Source of the DNA: an uncultured Acidobacteriota bacterium
Lineage (GTDB): Bacteria > Acidobacteriota > UBA6911
Assembly: GCA_963827655.1 (NCBI GenBank)
Contig: CAWHCF010000047.1
Location: forward strand, 46,111-110,110
DNA length: 64,000 bases
Direction: 5' to 3'
Shown one piece after another: positions 6,177 through 59,566 of this stretch. The notes beneath the pieces were generated by a model. It saw only the letters and a list, made by a program, of their open reading frames with translations, was not told where the DNA came from and searched no databases. A program made the position numbers and the translations under genes. The stretch's first letter is position 1, and the number at the start of each line of letters is the position of its first letter.

Positions 6177-6260
6177 GATTGACGATTTACGATTGACGAT
6201 TTACGATCGGAAAACTGGATCCTGATTTTAATCGTCAATCGTCAATCGTAAATCGTCAAT
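6177..6260. repeat. Heptamer (GACGATT/TACGATT) tandem repeat in inverted arrangement (hairpin)
   Basis: gattgacgatttacgattgacgatttacgat ... aatcgtcaatcgtcaatcgtaaatcgtcaat. Confidence 0.95.
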
Positions 6261-6261
6261 G

Positions 6262-6575
6262 CTTATAAACGTGGTCAAGCACTTCAAGTGGAAACCGGGG
6301 AAAAGGCGCATTCATGCCAACCGATTCCGGAAATGCCGATGCAGGCCTTGGCTTGAAGCTGAAATTTCTCCAGCGATTGTATTGCCTGGGAGCTACTTCA
6401 GCTCAGGCTCTCCTGGGAGAAACAGTTCAGGGTCAGCGGTCGCGAGGGGAGTTCGTGAAATCTTCTTTGCTCCCAGGTCATGGCAACCGTTCACCCGTCA
6501 TCCATTCTGCGGGCGCCCGACGACGAGACGCCGGTCGAGCGGCAAAGGTTCATCGATGATTTGAAAAAACTGAAG
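6262..6575 (+). pseudogene. udgX: C-terminal remnant of UdgX-type (family 4) uracil-DNA glycosylase
   Basis: Pieces in three frames: NVVKHFKWKPGKRRIH, CRPWLEAEI, CLGATSAQALLG, ATVHPSSILRAPDD; N-terminal half absent. Confidence 0.85.
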
Positions 6576-6580
6576 TCGAT

Positions 6581-6656
6581 ACGACGATTGACGATTGCAT
6601 GGCTAGGCGACGCTGACTGGCCGGGTTTTCAATCGTCAATCGTCAATCGTCAATCG
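6581..6656. repeat. Heptamer GACGATT inverted repeat
   Basis: acgacgattgacgattg ... aatcgtcaatcgtcaatcgtcaatcg; supplies the stop codon of the LVIVD gene. Confidence 0.85.
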
Positions 6657-7714
6657 AAGGATGAGCAGGCCGGCTTCGCCGTCGGCCAGAAAAACGGTGA
6701 TGCTGCCGTCCGGAGCGGATTCCGCCTGAACTCCAAGCGCCGTTCCGCTGGTATGGTATTCGGCTGCAATACGAGGTTTTTGTAAATCGTCAACGTCGAG
6801 CACTGTCAGTCCCCGTTTCCAGTTGGCCACGAAGACATAACGCCCGCTCCAGGCAACCCCGTGCGCCCAACCGCCCGATTCCGGATGAGCTCGATCTTTG
6901 GGGTTCAAACCCAATGAGTGGCGGGCAATCACCCTTGGCTGTGCCGGGTCCGAGAGATCTACCAGGCTTACCCCGCCATGCCCTTCCGCAACCGCCGCCA
7001 TAGGACGTCCATCGGGTGAGTTCCCCAGAGCCAGCGCAATTGCGGTGGCCGGCGTAGGGACTACGGCGATTTCCACAGGTTTTTCCGGAGCCCGGATATC
7101 GACGATACGCAGGCCGTAGTTCCAGTCGGCAAGGAGCGCGTGCTCCCGCCAGAGCTTGACATCGTGGGACCACCCGGGTGAGGCGAGCCCCGCAATCTGG
7201 CGAATCCCGTCTTTGCCCGGCTGAGCCACGACCAGGCCGTGCAGGCCAAATGCGACGAACGCCAGGTCGCCGCGCGTCGAGACGTAGTTTGCGATCTCGT
7301 TTTCAAACGCGAGCCGGCCGAGCACCGCTCCGTCGGGAGCCATGTGAACCAGTCCTTCGAACCGCGCGGCCAGCAGCAGGCCATCAGCCCGTGGGGCAAG
7401 CGAAATGACATCTGCCACCGGGGTGAAGGTCTGAGGCGAAGTTAACCCTTGGTCCCGCCGAAATACGAGGAGTCCCGCCTGGCGATCAGAGACGTAGATC
7501 TTGTTGTCTGCCAAAGCTACGTCGTGGGCCCATCCTGGAGTGTCGAAGCGCGCGGTCTCTTCGATGCGATAACGTCTCGAGCCGTGAATACAGGCCGAAA
7601 TGCAGAAAACCAGTGCGGCGAGAAGCGCAGTAGGCAGTCGCTTTCGGCCTTCCGACGCTTAGCTGATGGTAGCGCGGCGGAACTCCCACTTTCTTTGTTG
7701 TCTTGATTCGACAT
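6636..7714 (-). CDS. LVIVD-repeat beta-propeller lipoprotein (frameshift or non-ATG start near 7640-7660)
   Basis: TPGWAHDVALADNKIYVSD, SPGWSHDV, GGWAHGVAWSGRYVFVANW repeats; in-frame upstream lipoprotein-like LLAALVFCISAC but no in-frame ATG before the TAA at ~7660. Confidence 0.7.
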
Positions 7715-9835: not shown

Positions 9836-12800
9836 CTACGATGACCGCGAAGACGCCAGGACCCGATCGTTCCGCTTCGCCAGCAGTCTCCAGGGAAGCT
9901 CCAGAATTATGAAGCTCAGGAGCGCGATCAGCTCCAGGGACAAGATGTACCAGGGCCAGGGCCCCAGGTAGTCGATCAAGGAAGGCTGCGAAGGCGGGTG
10001 CCGCAGATAGCCGTAGTTCCAGCCGAAGGCCAGGTCGAGCGCGCCCACAGCCAGCGCATACAAATTGACCGCGAGAAGCATGCGAGGAACGCTGGCGGCG
10101 CGGGGTCGAAGTTTGCGGACCGCGATCAGATAAACGATCGCCAGCAGAATGGTTCCGTGAGACCAAAAGAATTGGATGAAATCCCAGGATGGGAAACCTA
10201 GCCCGAGGTCAGGCGTAACGACCGCGTGCAGGGTTCCGCCCAGCCCCCAGAAATAAGCAATTTCAAAGGCAAGACGATCAGGCCTGAAAAGCGCGATGAT
10301 GCAAGCCAGCAAGACGCAGTGGCATAGTTCGAGCGGAAGTGAGTTCTCCCAGCTCAGTTCGCCTGCCAGCCCTTTTTGCATGTAAGCCGCTACGACATAG
10401 GCTGCAAGCGAGACGCCAAGAGCTCTACCCAGCCCGTCCCTCTGCGCGGGGGAAAACCGCTCCGCGGACCACGCGATGAGGCCGCACAGCCCCACGATGA
10501 TCCCCAGTGTGACCAGGTGTTCGACGCTGAACGGTTCGAAGCTAGCCGGCTCTGGCACGTCAATCGTCAATAAATCGTCAATCGTCAATCGTAAATCGTC
10601 AATTGCGCGGCCTGTATTCAGGTGATCGAAATTCAAAATTGCATTGAAGACCAGGAAGTAGGTCCCCTGGGTTTGACCGCGCCAGATTGGATTGATCGAA
10701 AACAGGAGCACATGACCGCGCTCAACGGGCACATCGATTACGGCTGGATGCTGCGCGATCTCGCTGCCGGCTTCGAGGAGCCCCGAGATGAGCAGGTCCT
10801 TGGCTTCGGCATAGCGCAGCACGATACGCGGCCGGTACTCGGGAGGAATGACGTAGATCCCGTTGCGCTTTTGCTCGTCGGTGAGCGGAAGCGCCTCCCA
10901 CGGCTCCGCCTCGGGTTCTTCGGGAAGCTCACCGGCGCGCCGGTCCTGCGGAGTATCAGGATCATCTGCCGTGCCCCGTCCGGTCGGCCGCTCACGTTCC
11001 TCGGGCCGCCTTCGCCCGGCCCTGCCGCCGGCCATGTTGCTGATATTGAAGATTGGACCGTCGAAGCAATAAACGGACATCGAGTCCCCATAGCCGTAAG
11101 CGATCGGACTCGCTCGATCGACGAACTTCGAGCGCAGCACACTTCCGGCCACTTTCAGACGTTGCGGGCGGGCGATCTGGACCCCGGGTGTGAACCCGTA
11201 GGCGACGGCCAGATCGGCGGTGTCCATCACCCCTATAAGAAGGCCTCCCTGGCGAACGAAATTCTGTAGATTCTCGAGTCCCCGCCAACCCAGGCCCGGT
11301 CTTATATCGTCAGTGGCATCGATCTTTCCGAGGTTTGGAGTTTCAGGGGTTGTCTTCCAGGGGAGCGGGTTTCCCCACATCGGCATGCCTGCGACAATCG
11401 CCTGCGGTCCGCCCCGGCCGACCGGTGGAAAGAGAATGACGTCATACTTCGAAACCAGCGACTCGTCTTTCGCGACATCTTGAGTACTCAAGTACTGGTA
11501 CGGGATTTTCAGTTGATCGAAGGCCAGGCGCCACCATCCCTCATTTTGCGTGCTCAACCAGGAGTGCAGGATTGCAATACGCGCCGCCTTGACCGGATGC
11601 GTTTTCGCCGCGGGAGCGGCATTCAACGCCCGGATTCTCAGGCCCAGCTCGGACGCAGCGCGCTCAATTTCGGCGGCTTGGACGTTACGAACCAGAAAAG
11701 AACCTCGTGAGAATTTCTCCCCGTCAGCCTCGAACGGCTCCTCGACAGCCTCGAACGCCGCATCCTTAAAACGATAGCGCAACGTCATGAGCGCATTATC
11801 GGCATTATGATTCACGGCAAATACCGATCCGCTGCCTTTCAGGCTGCCCGGCGCGCGCACCTCGCCGGAGACCCTTTCCATCGGAGTCTCCAGAATGTTG
11901 GCGCCGGTTACCCGCACCACTTGCGCACCGAACAGCTCCCCCAGAGTCCAGCCCGTATCGTCATAGGGATTCTTCTGGGGATCGTTGGGGCTCCAGTACT
12001 GAGTATCGAGCAGCGCGTCAGCTACCCTGCTGTAAGGTTGATCCATCCGCACGATGTAACTGCCGGCCGCGAACTGACGCGTTTCGGGAGTGGATTCCTT
12101 TCTGACTTCGCCTGCCGCGCCGTCGCTCGACGACCTCCGGGGCTTCTTCTTCGGTTCCAAGGTCACGGAAAACTGGCCGGTGGCCCTGGAAATCTCGCAT
12201 CCCTGGAGCTGGATCAGCCGAAGAAGCTCGGCCTGGCCGCCGGGTCGCGGATCGTCGGCCGGAAAGATATAGGCGGATGGTCCCGCCTCTTTCGGCTTCA
12301 GGATCGAACGCTTGCTCTTGAGATAGAAGTTGCGCAAGAAGAGTTTTGAATTGGCTGCGAAGTGAGACAGCGACACCAGTAATCCCGTCTGCTGGTAGTT
12401 ATTGTTGTTGCGCTGCGACCATCTGGCTTTGGGCAACGGCGGGTTCTGGCGGTACCAGGTTCTTGCATACTGCTGGGGTTCCAGGGTGCGTTCCAGCGTA
12501 TCAGCGCCGCCATTACCAAACGTCTCATAGAGCCGGCTGATTCCGTTGTGAGTGGCCGCAAGAAACATGAGGTAGCCCGGCGACCATGTGTCGAAGGTGC
12601 CGTGGGCAAAGACGCCCGGCATGCCAAACTTGGTCATCTCCGAGACGTTGTGCCAGCCGATCATCTGCCATTCGTCGGCCAGGATAGGATCAATCCACGC
12701 ATTGTAGGGGCCGTCGCCAATGGTGTTGTCGTACAGGTAGGGTACGGATTCGTGCAGGTCATGCAGGACCTGAGCTTTCCAGTGGAGAAAAGTCTTCAAC

Positions 12801-35007: not shown

Positions 35008-35122
35008 CGATTTACGATTGACGATTTCAAAGAGGGGATGAAGTAGTCCGATTGGCTAATGCCAATGGACGATTTACAAGAGTGAAAGTCTGTATTTGAC
35101 AATCGTCAATCGTCAATCGTCA
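34993..35122. repeat. Heptamer GACGATT inverted arrays between convergent genes
   Basis: acgattgacgattgacgatttacgattgacgatt ... aatcgtcaatcgtcaatcgtca; provides the TGA for both genes. Confidence 0.93.
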
Positions 35123-36088
35123 ACGCTTCTTATTCTCCGTGACCCGGTCGATAGACTCTTTCAGTCCCGGTGAAGCCTTGAGGTCGTAGGCTTTCTTGTA
35201 GGCGTTGAGCGCAAGGTCCCACTTCTTCTGTTTCTCATAGACCAGGCCTATGCGCTGGAAGACCTCGGCGCTTTTGGGCATGAGCTCCAGCGCCTTGACT
35301 GAGAGCTTTTTCCGCTTCCGCTGTGTTGTTCTTGAAAAGGTAGGCCTCACCAAGGTTGTAGTAGATGAACCCGTCCTTGGGATTGTTTTCCCTGGCCTTG
35401 CCGAACAGGTCGATGGCCTGGTCATACTGCTTGGCCGACAGCGCCGCCACACCTTTCTTGAAATAAGATTTCGCTATGAATTCCGTGGTCGCGGTATGTC
35501 CCGGTTTTAGCGCCAGGGCTTTCTGCAGTGCCTGGATCGCGTCATCGTGGCGATTGAGGTGGTAGTTGGCGATCCCTAGCTGCGAGAAATCGGTCCAGTC
35601 GTTCCCCTTGATTCGGATCGCATTCGTAAGTTCGCTCGGCGGCCTCGCTGTATTTCTCCATCCGATGGTAGGCAGATCCTCGCAGGTGATGCAGCTTGTA
35701 CTTGTCATCGTCGGACTTTGCGAATTGTTCCCCTTGATTAAGGGTCTGGATGCAATTGTCGAAGCGCTGCATGTTGAAGTGGGCCTGTCCCAGCCCCTGG
35801 TAGGTCGAAAATGAAGTCGATTTGAGTTGTACCGCGCGCGTGAGCGATGAAACCGCCAGCGCATTGTTCTTCAGACTCAGATAACTCAGCCCCACCAGCC
35901 GATGACCGAACTCCCAATCGGGATTCTGATCCAGGTCGGGCTTGAGCTCTTGGATCGCCTTATCGAAATTCCCCTGGTTATACAACGCGACCGCCTGCTT
36001 GTAGTCTGCAAGCCCGACTCCGGTGGCGAAAGCCCAAGAGCCGCCGCGCCGACAGACCCAGTCTGCGCAGATGAAAAAACCTCTTCAT
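35120..36088 (-). CDS. Tetratricopeptide repeat protein, frameshifted (~36075, ~35635, ~35290)
   Basis: Consecutive TPR segments across ORFs 35542-35985, 35235-35864 and 35120-35452; GGAGG RBS before ATG 36088. Confidence 0.8.
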
Positions 36089-43840: not shown

Positions 43841-44704
43841 CTAAGGCAGCAGCCGACCGGCAAAGCCATCGACATGAATCCCGACTCGCCCTGGCATCAC
43901 TTCTCGGGCCACCATGACGATGCGATCACGGTAGTTCACGCTGACCGAATCATTATCGACGCGGCTCATTGCTCCTGGGAGGGCGGTGTCAAACGTGCGC
44001 CGGCCATCGGGCGTCCCGTCTCCCTGGATGAAATGATCGATCACCACAGCATCGGCAACCTCAGAGATGCGTTTGAAAAAAGCGCGAGGCTGATCGATCG
44101 GAAAGAGAGGAGATACGGTGACCACTACCTTCAAGCCCACTCTGTGCAGCTCCGCGGCGGCTGCGAGCCGTTTTGCTACCGAACTCGCCGGAGGCGGCAA
44201 GCCGGGCAGCCGGTCGCGATCGCTCTCGACCGAGATATGAATCCGCAGCTCGCACCTCTCGGCAAGCAAACGATAGAGATCCGTGCAGGCAGTCACGCGG
44301 TGCGTGTGGGTCTGCAGGATCAAGAGGTCGGGCGGAAGTTCCCGCATGGTTTCCAGAACCTGTCGCGTGATTCGGAATCGGTCTTCCTGCGGAAGAAAAG
44401 GATCGGTAGAGCTCGACATAAAGATCCCGAATCGTCCGCGGCTCGCGCGCGCCCAGCTCCGCTCGGTCTCAAAGCGCTCGCGATACGAATCCGCAGCGTT
44501 CGTCCGAACCTCCAGGAAGCTGCCCCAGCGATGGCCGCGAGTGAGAAAACTGTTGTGCTGCACATAGCAGCCGACCCCGCAGAGCGCGTTGCCGAAGGTG
44601 CAGCCACGATATGGCTGCAAAGAATGGGAGGATACGGTCGTCAGAAACCCGGTCGTGCGAGTCAGGATGCTGCGCACGGCGGTCTGGCTGATTTGAACAC
44701 CCAT
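43841..44704 (-). CDS. SplB/Rv2578c-like radical SAM protein
   Basis: SLQPYRGCTFGNALCGVGCYV, FMSSSTDPF, TVSPLFP. Confidence 0.85.
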   Translation of the reverse strand: MGVQISQTAVRSILTRTTGFLTTVSSHSLQPYRGCTFGNALCGVGCYVQHNSFLTRGHRWGSFLEVRTNAADSYRERFETERSWARASRGRFGIFMSSSTDPFLPQEDRFRITRQVLETMRELPPDLLILQTHTHRVTACTDLYRLLAERCELRIHISVESDRDRLPGLPPPASSVAKRLAAAAELHRVGLKVVVTVSPLFPIDQPRAFFKRISEVADAVVIDHFIQGDGTPDGRRTFDTALPGAMSRVDNDSVSVNYRDRIVMVAREVMPGRVGIHVDGFAGRLLP

Positions 44705-45349: not shown

Positions 45350-46609
45350 TCAAGGCGTGACGCTATCATCGCGCCTCCACGCAATATTACCTCCAATCAC
45401 GGTCGCTTCGCACTCGCCTGCCCCTTCCAGAATTTGAGACACCAGGTTCTTGGGCCCGGGATCATCCGTCAGCCGAAGGATCGTCATGTCGGCCCAATAA
45501 CCCCGCCGGAGCCGTCCCAAAGCGCTGCCGAAACCGAGAGCAGCCGCGCCGTTGAGCGTAGCCATACGAAAGATTTCCACGGCCTTCAAGTCCTTTCGAG
45601 ATCCGAAGAGAAACCTCATCTCGTCCAGGACGCTGAGCGAGTCGTTGCTCGCGAGAGAATCCGTCCCCAGAGCTACATTGACGCCGAGATCGAGCAGCTC
45701 ACGAACAGGGTGATCCTTGTGGCCAAAGAAATCGTGACTGCGCGGGCAATACACTACACTGCTTCGACTGCGCAGTATCTTCCTCATCGAATCACTATCG
45801 AGGTAATTGCAGTGGATCAAGAGAACAGGGGTTTCCAGAATACCTGATTGCTCAAGATAACTCACGGGATCGACGCCTGGAGGAGTCCAGTCTTTCGGCC
45901 ACGCATTCACACTCTTGAGAAAGGTCTTGATCGGCCCTGTTCCCGACCGGAGAAACTCCAGCTCCTCTCTGGTTTCGGCGAGATGGGTAGCCAGAGGGAG
46001 CTCCTTCTCCCGAGCCAGGCCGGCAATCGCGCGGTACAATTCCGGAGACACGGAATAGGGTGCATGCGGCGAGACGCCAATTCTCAAGAGTTTGTCGCGG
46101 CGTCCTCGCTTCAGGCGCGCTTGCAGTGACGCCAGGCTCTGGTTGACGTTTTCCGGCAAGAACGAAAGGGCTTCTTCGAAAACGACCTTGCGTAGAGTCA
46201 GCGGCTTCAGGGCCTCCCAGCTGACGCCGCTCGCGGAAATATCCGCGACCAGAGTGGTGCCCGAGGACAGGCACATCTGAGCGCCGACGCGCGCGGACTC
46301 AACGTATTCTTTCGCGGTCCATTCACGGCGCCGTTCGATAAGCTGCGAAATCCAATCGAAAAAGGAAGAGAAGCGGACAAGTTGTCCGTGCAGGCACGTG
46401 AGTTCCAGATGCGTGTGGGCGTTTACCAGGCCCGGGATCAACACGGCGGAGCCCCAATCGACGATCTCAGCTTCCAGAGTGGTCGGCGGGCCGTGCCACG
46501 GCTCGACCCGGGAAATGCGCCCGGGATCCGAAACATGCACCGTGGCATCCTGCAGAAGCAGATCGGCTTCAGCCAGGACGTACTTCGCTCGGTGAATCGT
46601 ACGAATCAT
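45350..46609 (-). CDS. Metal-dependent amidohydrolase (SsnA/adenosine-derivative deaminase-like)
   Basis: PGLVNAHTHLE, SPHAPYSV, THLAET, LGTDSLASN. Confidence 0.9.
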   Translation of the reverse strand: MIRTIHRAKYVLAEADLLLQDATVHVSDPGRISRVEPWHGPPTTLEAEIVDWGSAVLIPGLVNAHTHLELTCLHGQLVRFSSFFDWISQLIERRREWTAKEYVESARVGAQMCLSSGTTLVADISASGVSWEALKPLTLRKVVFEEALSFLPENVNQSLASLQARLKRGRRDKLLRIGVSPHAPYSVSPELYRAIAGLAREKELPLATHLAETREELEFLRSGTGPIKTFLKSVNAWPKDWTPPGVDPVSYLEQSGILETPVLLIHCNYLDSDSMRKILRSRSSVVYCPRSHDFFGHKDHPVRELLDLGVNVALGTDSLASNDSLSVLDEMRFLFGSRKDLKAVEIFRMATLNGAAALGFGSALGRLRRGYWADMTILRLTDDPGPKNLVSQILEGAGECEATVIGGNIAWRRDDSVTP

Positions 46610-46644
46610 AAGTTTCAGTATTAGTAGCGATCGCGGGGAGGCTC

Positions 46645-46785
46645 AAAAGAAAAGGGCCCGAGTGAGGGAGTCTAAAGGAGACAGGCGCTCCAGCAAACTG
46701 GATTCTTGCCGTTGGCAGTCCTGACGCCCCCGCCTGAAAGTCTCGTAACGGGTACTTGGACCCAGACTTCCCACTCTCGGGCCTT
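46645..46785 (-). ncRNA. Candidate ~140-nt structured RNA (unassigned)
   Basis: 5' and 3' ends pair (GGCCCGAG/CUCGGGCC), nested internal stems, 3' UUUUCUUUU, promoter placed directly upstream. Confidence 0.6.
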
Positions 46786-46790
46786 TTTGA

Positions 46791-46819
46791 AATATAAGCC
46801 GCTGCTCCTTGGGGTGCAA
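46791..46819 (-). promoter_or_regulatory. sigma70 promoter for the candidate RNA
   Basis: TTGCAC-N17-TATATT, predicted +1 at ~46784. Confidence 0.6.
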
Positions 46820-46905
46820 CAAGATTTTTGATCCGTGGGTTTCGAAGTGTCTTCGAGTCTTTGTGGTTAGCGCAGCCAAACAAAACCCGGCCTCTGAGAC
46901 GCTCA

Positions 46906-47136
46906 GGGTTCGCGCAGAAATAAGTTTGCATTCTGCTGCAGGCCCCCAGGCCCGCTGGCGAGGCGCAAGCGACGATGCGTACCCGGTGCGGTACGTGAGG
47001 AGCGAGCAACAAAGCCAGCGGGCCTGCGGGCCGCAGCCCAAGGGGCGCGATTCCGAGCGTGCGCAGCTAAGGGAAACGGTTCATGATTGACTACCGAGTC
47101 TCGCGCCAGAATGTGAAGTTATTTCTGCGCGAGCCC
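46906..47136 (+). mobile_element. MITE family A, complete 231-bp copy
   Basis: ~30-bp imperfect TIRs GGGTTCGCGCAGAAATAAGTTTGCATTCTG / CAGAATGTGAAGTTATTTCTGCGCGAGCCC, flanks cTCA|TAAg, internal hairpins, no transposase. Confidence 0.85.
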
Positions 47137-47241
47137 TAAGATACCGAGGAACTCATTCGTGCTTGGTCGCAAAGCCGGGCTTCAGTATATTGGGTGGCTG
47201 TTGGTTTTCCTTGTTCAAGACACGGATGGTGGAGGAGGTTC

Positions 47242-49058: not shown

Positions 49059-50970
49059 CTAGTTGGTAACGCTCACGGGCTTGTCCGGAGTCACCGGAGT
49101 TGCCGTCAACAGCCCCTGGTACTGAATCAATGCCGTGGCGACAAACCTCCTGCCTCCTTGCGCCAGCAGGACAATGGATCCCCTGAAAGTTGTCCTGGCC
49201 GGCAGGTACTCGTGCAGGAACTTTGAAATCTGCCGCTGCGGACCGAGCGGATTCAGCTCCGGTGGACTGATCGTGTCCGTGGGGTGGCCCTCGGCATTCA
49301 GGACCACAATCCTGATGTTGATACCCTCATTGCTCGGGTTCGCGATCGAGAACCCGGTGAATCGACTCTGCGAAGAGCTATTGTCGACCCCGATAGTGGC
49401 GAATTCAACCGGTTGAGTGGCGAAAACTCCCGCAACGGATCGCAGAGCGCCTCCGTCCGACAATTGAAAAGTGCTGACGCCCGACAACCCGCTGCTGGCG
49501 CTCTCGAAGCGGGCCCAGCCGGTCCTGACTTGAAGAGGGGTCAGGCTCGTGGCAAGAAACACCCTGGTCCCTCCGGCTGGAACCGAAATGCCGAACGAAG
49601 AGCCATCGATGTTCGACGGGTTCTTCGGAAGGCTGAAGGCTGGAAGGAGCCTCGTTCAGGCTGACTACAAATGGATTCCCCAAACTATCGGTGAGGGCCA
49701 GGGTGCCGGTCGCCGCCGACGCGCCGAGATTATTAAGCGCAACAACCGTGGAATACCCCACGCCAGTGACGACCTGGGGAAAGTACAGAGAGGAAAACAC
49801 CGTGATGGTAAAGTTCACAGAGTTCGAGTTGGCCGTCCCGGTCGCCACCCGCACCGTGGCCGTTCCCGGCTGCGCGATGTCCGGCGCCAGAATGGCCGCT
49901 GTGAGACGCGTGCTGTCTACAAAGGTGGTCGTGCGATTGGATCCGTTCCACTGCACCACCGACGTCGAGGTGAAATTAGTGCCGTTGACCGTAAGGGTAA
50001 ATGCCGCGCCTCCCGCTACTGCCGAACTCGGGCTGATGCTCGTAACGGTCGGTGTCTGACCGCTAATCGTGAACGTGAAGGAATTCGAAGTTTGTCCACC
50101 CCCGGGTCCGGGATTGAAAACAGTTATCTCGGCCGTTCCCGGAGCGGCTATGTCCAGCGCCGTGATCGCGGCCTCCAGCGTTGTCGTTGACAGGGGATTT
50201 AACAGCATAGTGACCCGGTCGTTTCCGTTCCAGCGAACCACGGACGTGCGATCGAAGTTGGTTCCGGTAACCGTGAGGCTGAATGCCGCACCACCGGCAG
50301 GTCTGGAACTAGGTAACAAGGTAGTTATTGTGGGCGCTTGGAAGTTCGCCGCAATAAAGTTCACGGAGTTCGAGTTGGCCGTCCCGGTCACCACCCGCAC
50401 TGTAGCCGTCCCCGGCTGGGCGATATCCGCTGCTGGAATGGCCGCGGTGAGACGCGTGCTGTCTACAAAGGTGGTCGTGCGATTGGATCCGTTCCACTGC
50501 ACGACCGAGGTCGAGGTGAAATTCGTGCCGTTGACCGTAAGGGTAAATGCCGGGCCTCCAACTACCGCCGAACTCGGGCTGATGCTTGTAACGCGTGAGT
50601 GCTGGTCACCAGTGATCGTGAACGTGACGGCATTCGAAGTTTGTCCGCCCGCGGGTCCGGGATTGAAAACAGTTATCTGGGCCGTTCCCGGAGCGGCTAT
50701 GTCCAGCGCCGTGATCGCGGCCTCCAGCGTCGCGGGAGGGATCAGGGTAGTGACCCGGGCGCTTCCGTTCCAGCGAACCACGGACGAAGAATTGAGGTTG
50801 GTTCCGGTGACCGTGAGGCTGAATGCCGGACCGCCGGCAGGTCTGGAACTAGGAGCGACGCTAGCTATGGTGGGCGCTTGCGCGTTCGCTGCAGCTACGT
50901 TGAATAACAGAAATCCGGCGACTACCACAAACCATCCCCGGCTGAAGACTGAAACCACTCGAGATTTCAT
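49059..50970 (-). CDS. Secreted IPT/TIG-domain protein (four Ig-like domains plus acidobacterial C-terminal region), frameshift ~49605
   Basis: Repeated SISPSS...FTLTVNGTNF...VQWNG; LYFPQVVTG; continuation GWARFES...TGFSIANP in another frame; AAGGAG RBS. Confidence 0.85.
49800..50882. repeat. Intragenic tandem duplication, two ~540-bp units
   Basis: Long identical stretches, e.g. gtgagacgcgtgctgtctacaaaggtggtcgtgcgattggatccgttccactgcac at ~49901 and ~50447. Confidence 0.9.
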
Positions 50971-51289
50971 ACTTGATTCTCCTTGTTGGGGACTCGGCGC
51001 GAGGTCCACCTGGTAAGGTGCATTACAACATTGCCCGATCATATCGCGGCAGAGGTCATACCTCATAAGACGTGACGAGGCCCACATATTAGCCTTGGTC
51101 GCAGGCTTCCCGCAAGAATCGTAAGTACGCGGTTTCATAACACGGTAACGTATTCGCGCTGGCTCTAGGGCGGGCAAGCCGCGTTCGCATCAGGCGAAGT
51201 AAGCTTCGCCAGTCAGTTTCTGTCGTCCACGGAACCTTCGAAAGCGCTTCAGGTGGTTAGAGCTGTCTAACGAAATACCGCGTGAACGA

Positions 51290-59279: not shown

Positions 59280-59403
59280 AGTTTTACATTCTGCTTCAGG
59301 CCCTCGGACCCGCTGGCGAGGCGCGAGCGACCATGCACACCCAGCGCCGTACGTGACGAGCGAGCAACAAAGCCAGCGGGCCTGCGGGACGCAGCCGAAG
59401 GGG
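59280..59403 (+). mobile_element. MITE family A, partial copy (left part)
   Basis: agttttacattctg...cccgctggcgaggcgc...gagcgagcaacaaagccagcgggcctgcggg matches 46923-47043. Confidence 0.82.
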
Positions 59404-59566
59404 CTGTAGCACAACGACCCGATACATGTGCGGACGGGCTCTCGATAGCCCGTCCGGCCCCCTAGTGGCACAGAAGAACTTTTAAGGCTAAATCCTCCCG
59501 ATCACGCTACTTGCGACGGTCTCTGATTGACCCGTCGCCACTTAAGGCTTCGGAAATTTCTTCACA
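59401..59566 (-). mobile_element. REPIN/MITE-like element, family B copy 2
   Basis: Reverse complement aligns with 13780-13936; stems conserved, loops differ. Confidence 0.78.

Follow-up and report, generated by a model that had tools for sequence, protein, structure and literature searches.

A conserved double-pseudoknot RNA family of about 130 nucleotides, found upstream of an amidohydrolase gene in an uncultured Acidobacteriota bacterium

The minus strand of a 64,000-nucleotide stretch of DNA from an uncultured Acidobacteriota bacterium (contig CAWHCF010000047.1 of assembly GCA_963827655.1; the whole stretch is termed the window) carries, shortly before an amidohydrolase gene, a member of a family of RNAs of about 130 nucleotides (nt) with two pseudoknots. 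Comparison of genomic and metagenomic members shows that this RNA is real and strongly conserved, that it is sporadic across several phyla rather than restricted to this group of Acidobacteria, and that it is not a general 5' leader. The family is absent from Rfam 15 and belongs among the orphan structured bacterial non-coding RNAs (ncRNAs). Judged from sequence comparison, it is probably, if by no means certainly, a free-standing, horizontally mobile structured-RNA gene that acts through its conserved pseudoknotted core. The original prediction, made from the window's sequence, had offered two options, an independent small RNA or a riboswitch or attenuator of the amidohydrolase gene, and the family-wide evidence favours the first of these.

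Structure and covariation of the RNA

The predicted promoter (TTGCAC-N17-TATATT), closing stem and U-rich tail were all found on the minus strand exactly as described, and the segment is single-copy, with one match in the window and likewise one in the entire 8.18-Mb assembly. The features of the locus, numbered from the first letter of the window, are as follows.

46814-46819, minus strand: -35-like hexamer TTGCAC, from the sequence and from TTGAAA, TTGAAT, TTGCAG or TTGCAT at the same place in relatives
46791-46796, minus strand: -10-like hexamer TATATT, separated by 17 nt from the -35 hexamer and by 7 nt from P1
46783-46655, minus strand: structured RNA segment, 129 nt; the closing stem opens at G46783 and its partner strand ends at 46655
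46776-46783, minus strand: P1 5' strand GGCCCGAG, pairing with 46655-46662; a compensatory A-U to G-C change in one relative
46769-46774, minus strand: P1a, pairing with 46664-46669 with one U.U mismatch; covariation
46768, minus strand: bulged A between P1a and P1b
46764-46767, minus strand: P1b GUCU, pairing with 46670-46673; all four pairs compensatory
46758-46761, minus strand: S2 pseudoknot 5' strand GUCC, pairing with GGAC at 46718-46721
46753-46757, minus strand: unpaired AAGUA between S2 and S3; AAnUA at least 88% conserved in 25 members
46748-46752, minus strand: S3 pseudoknot 5' strand CCCGU, pairing with GCGGG at 46729-46733
46740-46744, minus strand: P3 5' strand GAGAC, pairing with GUCUC at 46678-46682; all five pairs compensatory
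46724-46728, minus strand: P4 5' strand GGCGU, pairing with GCGCC at 46684-46688; follows the S3 3' strand without a gap
46707-46717, minus strand: P5 hairpin UGCC-AAC-GGCA; length-variable and absent in some members
46689-46702, minus strand: P6 hairpin UCCAG-UUUG-CUGGA; abuts the P4 3' strand, loop length varies
46655-46673, minus strand: 3' strands of P1b, P1a and P1, AGAC UCCCUC A CUCGGGCC, partners of 46764-46783
46645-46653, minus strand: U-rich tail UUUUCUUUU (= TTTTCTTTT), with one C between P1 and the tail
45350-46609, minus strand: amidohydrolase open reading frame (ORF), 419 amino acids, ATG at 46609, 35 nt past the U-rich tail
47194 (start), divergent: ornithine cyclodeaminase/mu-crystallin gene, from profile matches

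The minimum-free-energy fold of the single sequence is modestly better than that of shuffled sequences (z = -2.21, with 5 of 200 shuffles equally good), and the case for an RNA rests on comparative data. Searches with blastn over 40 relatives returned five homologues at 68-77% identity, in whose alignment some blocks are invariant, the -10 box is conserved and the downstream start is shared; TATAAT, TATATT, TATACT or TAGATT is aligned at the -10 position in all examined members of the window's family. RNAalifold, applied to six sequences, recovered S3 and P4 and missed P3 and S2. A first covariance model was seeded on four near-identical sequences, and two MAFFT alignments (A3 and A4) were dropped as mis-registered around P6 and P3.

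Among 14 full-length family members, 95.1% of alignment cells were paired and 17 of 37 pairs were compensatory; none of 500 shuffles was as high, and slid controls gave 30-49%. The collection of homologues proposed as a check revealed strong compensatory change: in 25 members found in genomes by covariance model, the alignment including both pseudoknots, 93.4% of cells were paired and 36 of 46 pairs compensatory, again with none of 500 shuffles as high and with slid controls at 37-47%. The corresponding values for 76 distinct metagenome members, also with both pseudoknots written in, were 94.8% and 33 of 46. The nested part of the covariance model served as the frame to which these alignments were fitted, which favours the nested helices; the pseudoknots are not in that model, and thus their counts, five of five pairs changed on both sides for S3 and two of four for S2 in the 25-member set, are free of fitting bias. 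At least 88% conservation was seen at 36 columns, only six of them unpaired, and these near-invariant positions cluster around S2, S3, P4 and P6.

Several helices of the original prediction, namely the long closing stem (P1/P1a/P1b), GAGAC/GUCUC (P3), UGCC-aac-GGCA (P5) and UCCAG-uuug-CUGGA (P6), covary in relatives. In other families P1 has a wholly different yet complementary sequence (GGAGCGG/CCGCUCC), and in other families of the class P6 reads UCCUG/CAGGA in place of UCCAG/CUGGA, its fourth pair being UA in 12, AU in 9, CG in 3 and GC in 1 of the 25 genome-derived members. The inner helix of P5 is 94.6% paired, with four of four pairs compensatory. P4 is nearly invariant, C-G being replaced by G-C in 2 of 25 members and U.G by U-A in 1 of 25; as P4 was fixed by the search pattern in alignment A9, alignments A7 and A11 alone are informative on this helix.

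Two further proposed pairings, the hairpin GGGU-ccaagu-ACCC and the stem CAGGCG/CGCCUG, are present in the window's sequence but are contradicted by its relatives, and have been superseded by S2, S3 and P4. In place of the hairpin, close relatives read GAAU...ACCC, and ACCCG instead pairs with GCGGG in S3; in place of the stem's register, compensatory GGGGU/GCCCC variants fit GGCGU/GCGCC, which is P4. S3 is established by the block after ACC, which changes in step with the block before GGCGU in other families, variants including CCGGG/CCCGG, CUGGG/CCCAG, CCGGA/UCCGG and UCCGC/GCGGA. The pairing GGUCC/GGACU, tentatively suggested at first, proved to be a real and covarying pseudoknot, S2, which was revealed by 80 metagenome members in which NUCC 5' of AAGUA pairs with GGAN' after P4. 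Its variants are GUCC/GGAC, AUCC/GGAU, UUCC/GGAA, CUCC/GGAG, GCCC/GGGC and UACC/GGUA, and its first pair, in the pattern-gathered metagenome set, is GC in 53 members, AU in 9, UA in 7 and CG in 1.

The strands follow one another in the order P1, P1a, P1b, S2-5', AAGUA, S3-5', P3-5', S3-3', P4-5', CA, S2-3', P5, P6, P4-3', P3-3', P1b-3', P1a-3', P1-3'. Since S3-3' runs into P4-5' and P6-3' into P4-3', the helices S3, P4 and P6 could stack as a column of about 15 base pairs (bp) and are probably coaxial. From the list of pairs, S3 and P3 would form an H-type knot, S2 would tie the strand leaving P4 to the 5' region, and the conserved nucleotides would surround the S2/S3/P4/P6 junction. The expectation that no credible ORF covers the segment holds in part: two mechanically called ORFs overlap it (46569-47012 and 46643-47041, both minus), but the compensatory changes at paired positions, and a P5 and loops that vary in length, speak against their coding for protein.

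No family of Rfam 15, whether 6S, SRP, Acido-1 or a riboswitch, matches the RNA. At gathering thresholds there were no matches in the whole window; with E up to 10, the region 46500-47150 gave weak hits twice, both on the plus strand, and nothing on the strand of the RNA; and 18 diverse members searched with E up to 1 gave no match on the RNA. About 1 kb from the RNA of another locus lies an unrelated, sub-threshold Acido-1 match (L135:1234-1292, minus; 25.8 bits against a gathering score of 50, E 0.53). A search of the full-text literature found no description of the RNA, supplements (e.g., those of PMC5737381, PMC8632094 and PMC11109978) and about 1.7 million PubMed Central (PMC) articles lying outside that search.

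Distribution, transcription unit and neighbouring genes

Within the window's family, the covariance model detected the RNA, always as one copy, in 15 of 51 genomes, with carriers differing greatly by genus (g10, 2 of 2; g8, 1 of 1; g6, 3 of 3; g9, 8 of 9; five genera, 0 of 1 each; and g2, the largest genus of the family, 0 of 30). An order-level search returned the same 51 family genomes and added nothing. A second covariance model found the RNA in 20 of 137 genomes at class level, and a sample of the phylum contained 3 carriers among 151 genomes, the window's own included. The idea of an Acidobacteria-specific motif was not borne out, as covariance-model matches were also obtained in 151-genome samples centred on the Nitrospirota (Nitrospiraceae, one carrier), the Gemmatimonadota (Gemmatimonadales, four carriers) and the Chloroflexota (Chloroflexales, four carriers). 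By the covariance model, none of the 151 genomes of a Pseudomonadota-centred sample (Microbulbifer centre) carried the RNA, and neither did any of five single genomes behind chance loci. Metagenomes, scanned with a motif, gave at least 120 stretches, with 78 of the 80 listed confirmed by covariance model. For the first motif pattern run on genome contigs, nine of the 60 matches listed were real as judged by inspection of their flanks, the other 51 being GC-rich coding look-alikes; at least one genome with an exact match is missing from that list. No match came from plasmids or phages, searched with blastn in distant mode, or from viral contigs, searched by motif, a result limited to those collections and sensitivities. 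Copy number is mostly one, with two copies in genomes G035 and G433 and three in G132.

The three copies of G132 lie within 18 kb of its contig 9, amid attC-like repeats of two families (13 and 10 copies), where they form short ORF-less units between the repeats and are oriented like cassette ORFs. In this region (L114, contig 9, 8000-27000) and in L115, ORFs of about 150 amino acids are separated by attC-like repeats (CCGCCTAAC ... GCCGTTAGGCGG), an arrangement that reads as an integron cassette array; the attC consensus, as quoted in PMC8632094, is RYYYAAC ... GTTRRRY. An integron integrase over the curated cut-off is encoded in G132 (on contig 24, not on the array contig) and in G133, and the flanks in G133 and G136 are similar to those in G132. 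The window contains no attC-like array, and G000 no integron integrase over cut-off. Crude attC motif tests on metagenome loci gave 0 of 69, 2 of 69 against 1.45 in shuffles, and 2 of 63 against 0.32; as these are negative or equal to shuffles, an integron context is claimed for G132 only. Given its sporadic occurrence over phyla, its presence in up to three copies per genome and its ORF-less cassettes in one genome, the RNA gene appears to be horizontally mobile.

Among 98 members, 29 have TAnnnT together with a -35 element (at least four of six matches) within 25 nt upstream, compared with a mean of 4.3 and a maximum of 9 in shuffles; many GC-rich members show, by eye, TTGACA, 17 nt and CAnnnT, which falls outside this strict promoter test. 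A T-rich tail, defined as at least five T in the eight nt directly after P1, follows 58 of the 98 members, the figure for a control window shifted by a further 40 nt being 6 of 98. The two marks of a free-standing small RNA, a promoter-like site and a T-rich tract after the closing stem, are therefore both present above controls, and transcription would be expected to terminate at the U-rich tail. In the window itself, a consensus promoter scan called no promoter at the upstream site of the RNA, because TTGCAC matches TTGACA at three of six positions (counted here), and a simple terminator scanner, which is blind to a stem closing a 110-nt interior, called nothing at the 3' end.

At the 67 loci with at least 500 nt downstream, the next ORF within 500 nt is co-directional in 31 cases and convergent in 29, with none in 7. 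An all-against-all blastp comparison of 782 flanking ORFs gave no cluster beyond five closely related loci, and Pfam revealed no recurrent family in the flanks, the top families covering 5 of 122 downstream and 2 of 67 upstream ORFs. Because convergent neighbours are about as frequent as co-directional ones and no downstream family recurs, a riboswitch leader position fails family-wide. Single ParE, PemK, HipA and HepT toxin domains are found among the downstream ORFs. At five related metagenome loci (L132, L158, L164, L183 and L195), a convergent IS110-family transposase gene has its stop 4-5 nt inside the RNA match, so that either the insertion sequence (IS) targets the end of the RNA or both travel together. 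Another locus, L110, may be a case of a true leader outside the window's family: its copy of the RNA, at 1501-1630, has AGGAGG about 15 nt downstream and then a short ORF that starts with GTG and shows CxxC-like spacing.

The region 45900-47100 was covered in each of four metatranscriptome contig sets, from soil or rhizosphere, by 2-12 single-read-sized contigs, with a depth of 2-5 over the RNA, and one contig (46771-46902) extends upstream of the presumed start. Assembled contigs show no starts, ends or strand and may reflect DNA carry-over, gaps in their coverage carry no meaning, and no conclusion on expression is drawn from them.

The amidohydrolase gene of the window matches Pfam Amidohydro_1 at 148.6 bits and falls in the TRZ/ATZ-type deaminase superfamily. 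Among NCBIfam models it scores best with the aminofutalosine deaminase family, at 195 bits and thus short of the cut-off of 320, and the solved chains closest to it are those of DR_0824, aminofutalosine deaminase and MTA/SAH deaminase, in view of which the initial label of a deaminase-like amidohydrolase was fair. In 13 of the 15 loci of the window's family an orthologue (60-67% identity) starts 37-55 nt after the RNA match; of the remaining two loci, one is at a contig edge and the other, L105, has no orthologue. L176, the sole family-like metagenome locus, has the same deaminase-type gene downstream, and L081 (8 kb, with a family-type RNA) has no amidohydrolase orthologue and keeps the divergent cyclodeaminase-family gene. 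Outside the window's family, the RNA never adjoins this enzyme.

RNA and enzyme are separable in both directions. No amidohydrolase orthologue was found in G016, an RNA carrier that is 88% complete, while G002 and G006 encode an orthologue (55% and 61%) with unrelated upstream DNA and no RNA. In G013 the orthologue lies behind a 105-nt remnant (L249:2784-2888, minus; 24 bits, E 0.0011) that has kept the promoter, P1 and the T-rich tail and has lost the pseudoknot core. As to whether the downstream gene is constant or variable, it is thus constant in the 13 loci of the window's family and variable family-wide, and with no association outside that family, a carrier without the enzyme and three genomes with the enzyme but without an intact RNA, a riboswitch dedicated to the amidohydrolase is not supported; a local attenuator role in the window's lineage is possible. 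In the spacer between RNA and amidohydrolase, no promoter was recognised by eye in a few relatives. Two candidate spacer elements were rejected: a second promoter, TTGAGC ... TAATAC, picked by eye, was not retained in those few relatives that were inspected, likewise by eye, and the window's spacer has a 7-bp complement to GCGGGGG that its relatives do not conserve.

Further observations concern the surroundings of the locus in the window. A 122-nt direct repeat (88% identity) lies at 46925-47046 and 59283-59404, its first copy just upstream of the promoter region of the RNA, and in the four metatranscriptome contig sets the summed depth is greatest over this stretch, where loose ends are also numerous, as for a multi-copy element. 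Within the minus-strand ORF 49405-51177, three blocks at 49809-50893 are duplicated at a spacing of about 540-549 nt (82-93% identity), pointing to a protein product that contains long internal repeats. The heptamer AATCGTC forms short arrays at 6229-6264, 6623-6672, 10572-10607 and 35093-35128. Two ORFs downstream of the amidohydrolase is a weak radical-SAM-like ORF (43841-44704, minus), with PA0069/Rv2578c-type families at 47-67 bits, far under their cut-offs.

Proposed mode of action and alternatives

As a free-standing gene, the RNA would be transcribed from a sigma-70-type promoter, starting about 7 nt past the -10 element, at P1. The transcript, of about 130-140 nt, is predicted to fold into two helical stacks tied by the two pseudoknots, with P1 closing the fold and, together with the U-rich tail, presumably ending most transcripts. 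Since the near-invariant positions gather at S2, S3, P4 and P6, this core is the probable functional site, and it would most likely act in trans, by binding a protein, RNA or small ligand encoded elsewhere. In the window's lineage, the RNA would have become fixed 37-55 nt before the amidohydrolase gene; as no promoter was recognised by eye in the spacer, read-through of P1 and the U-tail may supply the mRNA of the enzyme, the RNA then serving there as a secondary leader or attenuator.

Several points weigh against this account. The downstream gene is kept in 13 of 15 loci as it would be by a cis-regulator, though synteny among relatives alone could be enough to explain this. No clear T-rich tail follows 40 of the 98 members, and a stem closing a 110-nt interior is not a textbook intrinsic terminator. 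The orientation counts come from crude ORF picking with no gene caller, and the metagenome set was gathered with a fixed motif, which inflates the apparent conservation of the core and biases the members seen. The RNA data are low-depth assembled contigs, one of which (46590-46740) bridges the coding region, the U tail and the RNA, and fits read-through or DNA carry-over. Trans action, finally, is a conclusion reached by elimination.

Bacterial RNAs this rich in conserved tertiary architecture are usually riboswitches, ribozymes or partners of core machinery. The first of these, in the form of a riboswitch or attenuator, is the chief alternative and is considered rather unlikely; it would be a pseudoknotted aptamer whose ligand stabilises P1 and so terminates transcription before the downstream gene, the whole forming a portable promoter-plus-switch module. 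The high-information core, the covarying helices and the variable P5 are as in riboswitch aptamers, and such a module would also account for the promoter directly before and the U tail directly behind P1, for the deaminase-type gene 37-55 nt downstream in the 13 family loci and L176, for the want of a recurring spacer promoter by eye in a few relatives, and for the metatranscriptome contig that bridges RNA and coding region. With terminating riboswitches, the RNA shares an aptamer-like core closed by P1, a U-run after it and, in this lineage, a metabolic gene at that distance. Here, however, P1 itself must be the terminator stem, no separate expression platform is seen, and no anti-terminator pairing is conserved among relatives by eye, a possible competing strand downstream of the window's copy being absent from them. 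The family-wide balance of 29 convergent against 31 co-directional neighbours among 67 and the lack of a recurrent downstream gene class also count against a riboswitch, as does the cassette array of G132, in which an attC-like site lies between RNA and next ORF and the three next ORFs differ. In addition, gene association is confined to one family, and even there RNA and enzyme occur apart (G016 with RNA and no enzyme, G002 and G006 with enzyme and no RNA, G013 with the core lost).

Judged less probable again is a self-cleaving ribozyme, or a catalytic RNA of another sort, carried on mobile DNA in the manner of the twister, hammerhead, pistol and hatchet motifs. Its compact fold with several pseudoknots and near-invariant junction nucleotides would suit catalysis, and its lack of gene association, sporadic spread across phyla, several copies in some genomes and neighbourhoods with toxin-antitoxin genes, IS110 transposases and cassette arrays would suit a mobile ribozyme, but no ribozyme model of Rfam 15 matches, the promoter at the 5' end and the tail at the 3' end leave little flank to process, no conserved candidate cleavage site can be named from the sequence, and there was no match in the plasmid, phage and viral collections.

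A resemblance to 6S RNA, raised in the original prediction, is not supported. 6S RNA is a rod of about 180 nt with a central bubble, present in one copy in essentially every genome, whereas this RNA has no Rfam 6S match, has a pseudoknotted junction instead of a long rod, and occurs in 15 of 51 family genomes. With 6S, Acido-1, Acido-Lenti-1 and SRP RNA it shares a small size, a non-coding nature and a transcription unit of its own, but none of these models matches it, and 6S and SRP RNA are universal.

A DNA-level element, a single-stranded DNA (ssDNA) structure for recombination such as an unusual attC-like site or an IS target, is very improbable: copies in an integron-like array, five members that abut IS110 transposases and the inability of covariation methods to separate ssDNA from RNA (stated in PMC5737381) would allow it, but the promoter-like and T-tail signals are strand-specific and enriched, G.U pairs occur in the modelled strand, including the nearly invariant U.G that closes P4 (23 of 25), the window and most metagenome loci have no attC-like flanks in crude tests, and the array RNA lies between attC-like sites and not in their place. 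The probability left over is assigned to functions outside these named readings.

Relation to known RNA systems and significance

Guide RNAs of IS110 elements share the strand of the transposase. The bridge or seek RNAs of the IS110/IS1111 family (PMC11187229) resemble the present RNA at the five related loci in being structured ncRNAs beside an IS110-family transposase, but here the RNA converges on the transposase, and its variable parts are paired stems rather than variable guide-like loops. Moreover, over 90% of members have no nearby transposase (5 of 122 downstream ORFs). Orphan ncRNA motifs (those of PMC5737381 and PMC2864571, and raiA) likewise have covarying helices, conserved junctions, many metagenomic members and no known function, while the double pseudoknot, the promoter of its own and the end formed by P1 and the U-tail are specific to this RNA. 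ORF-less integron cassettes with promoter activity have been reported (PMC11014356; PMC6557892), and G132 has its RNA in short ORF-less units flanked by attC-like sites in the same way; the available text of those reports describes promoters, whereas here the content is a conserved structured RNA, most members of which, the window's copy among them, lie outside recognisable arrays.

The family has more than 100 representatives, which come from samples built around genomes of at least four phyla, and Rfam 15 has no entry for it. For annotation, a spurious gene-specific riboswitch assignment is removed, and a structure and model-ready alignments are supplied. The window's lineage also provides a natural experiment, since a clade with a fixed pair of RNA and enzyme, one decayed core and other genomes that lack one partner or the other makes action in cis or in trans directly testable. 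Tentatively, and with less assurance than is given to a free-standing mobile gene as such, the family may represent a new class of mobile, self-contained RNA gene, comprising a promoter, a double-pseudoknot RNA of about 130 nt and a built-in end, that moves between phyla and is sometimes an ORF-less cassette; its core would be catalytic or ligand-sensing and adaptive without a protein, and in one lineage it would have been domesticated to control a nucleoside/base deaminase-type enzyme. Should it prove general, the RNA as sole content of a cassette would amount to a clear example of an adaptive cassette made of RNA only, which bears on the role of ORF-less cassettes.

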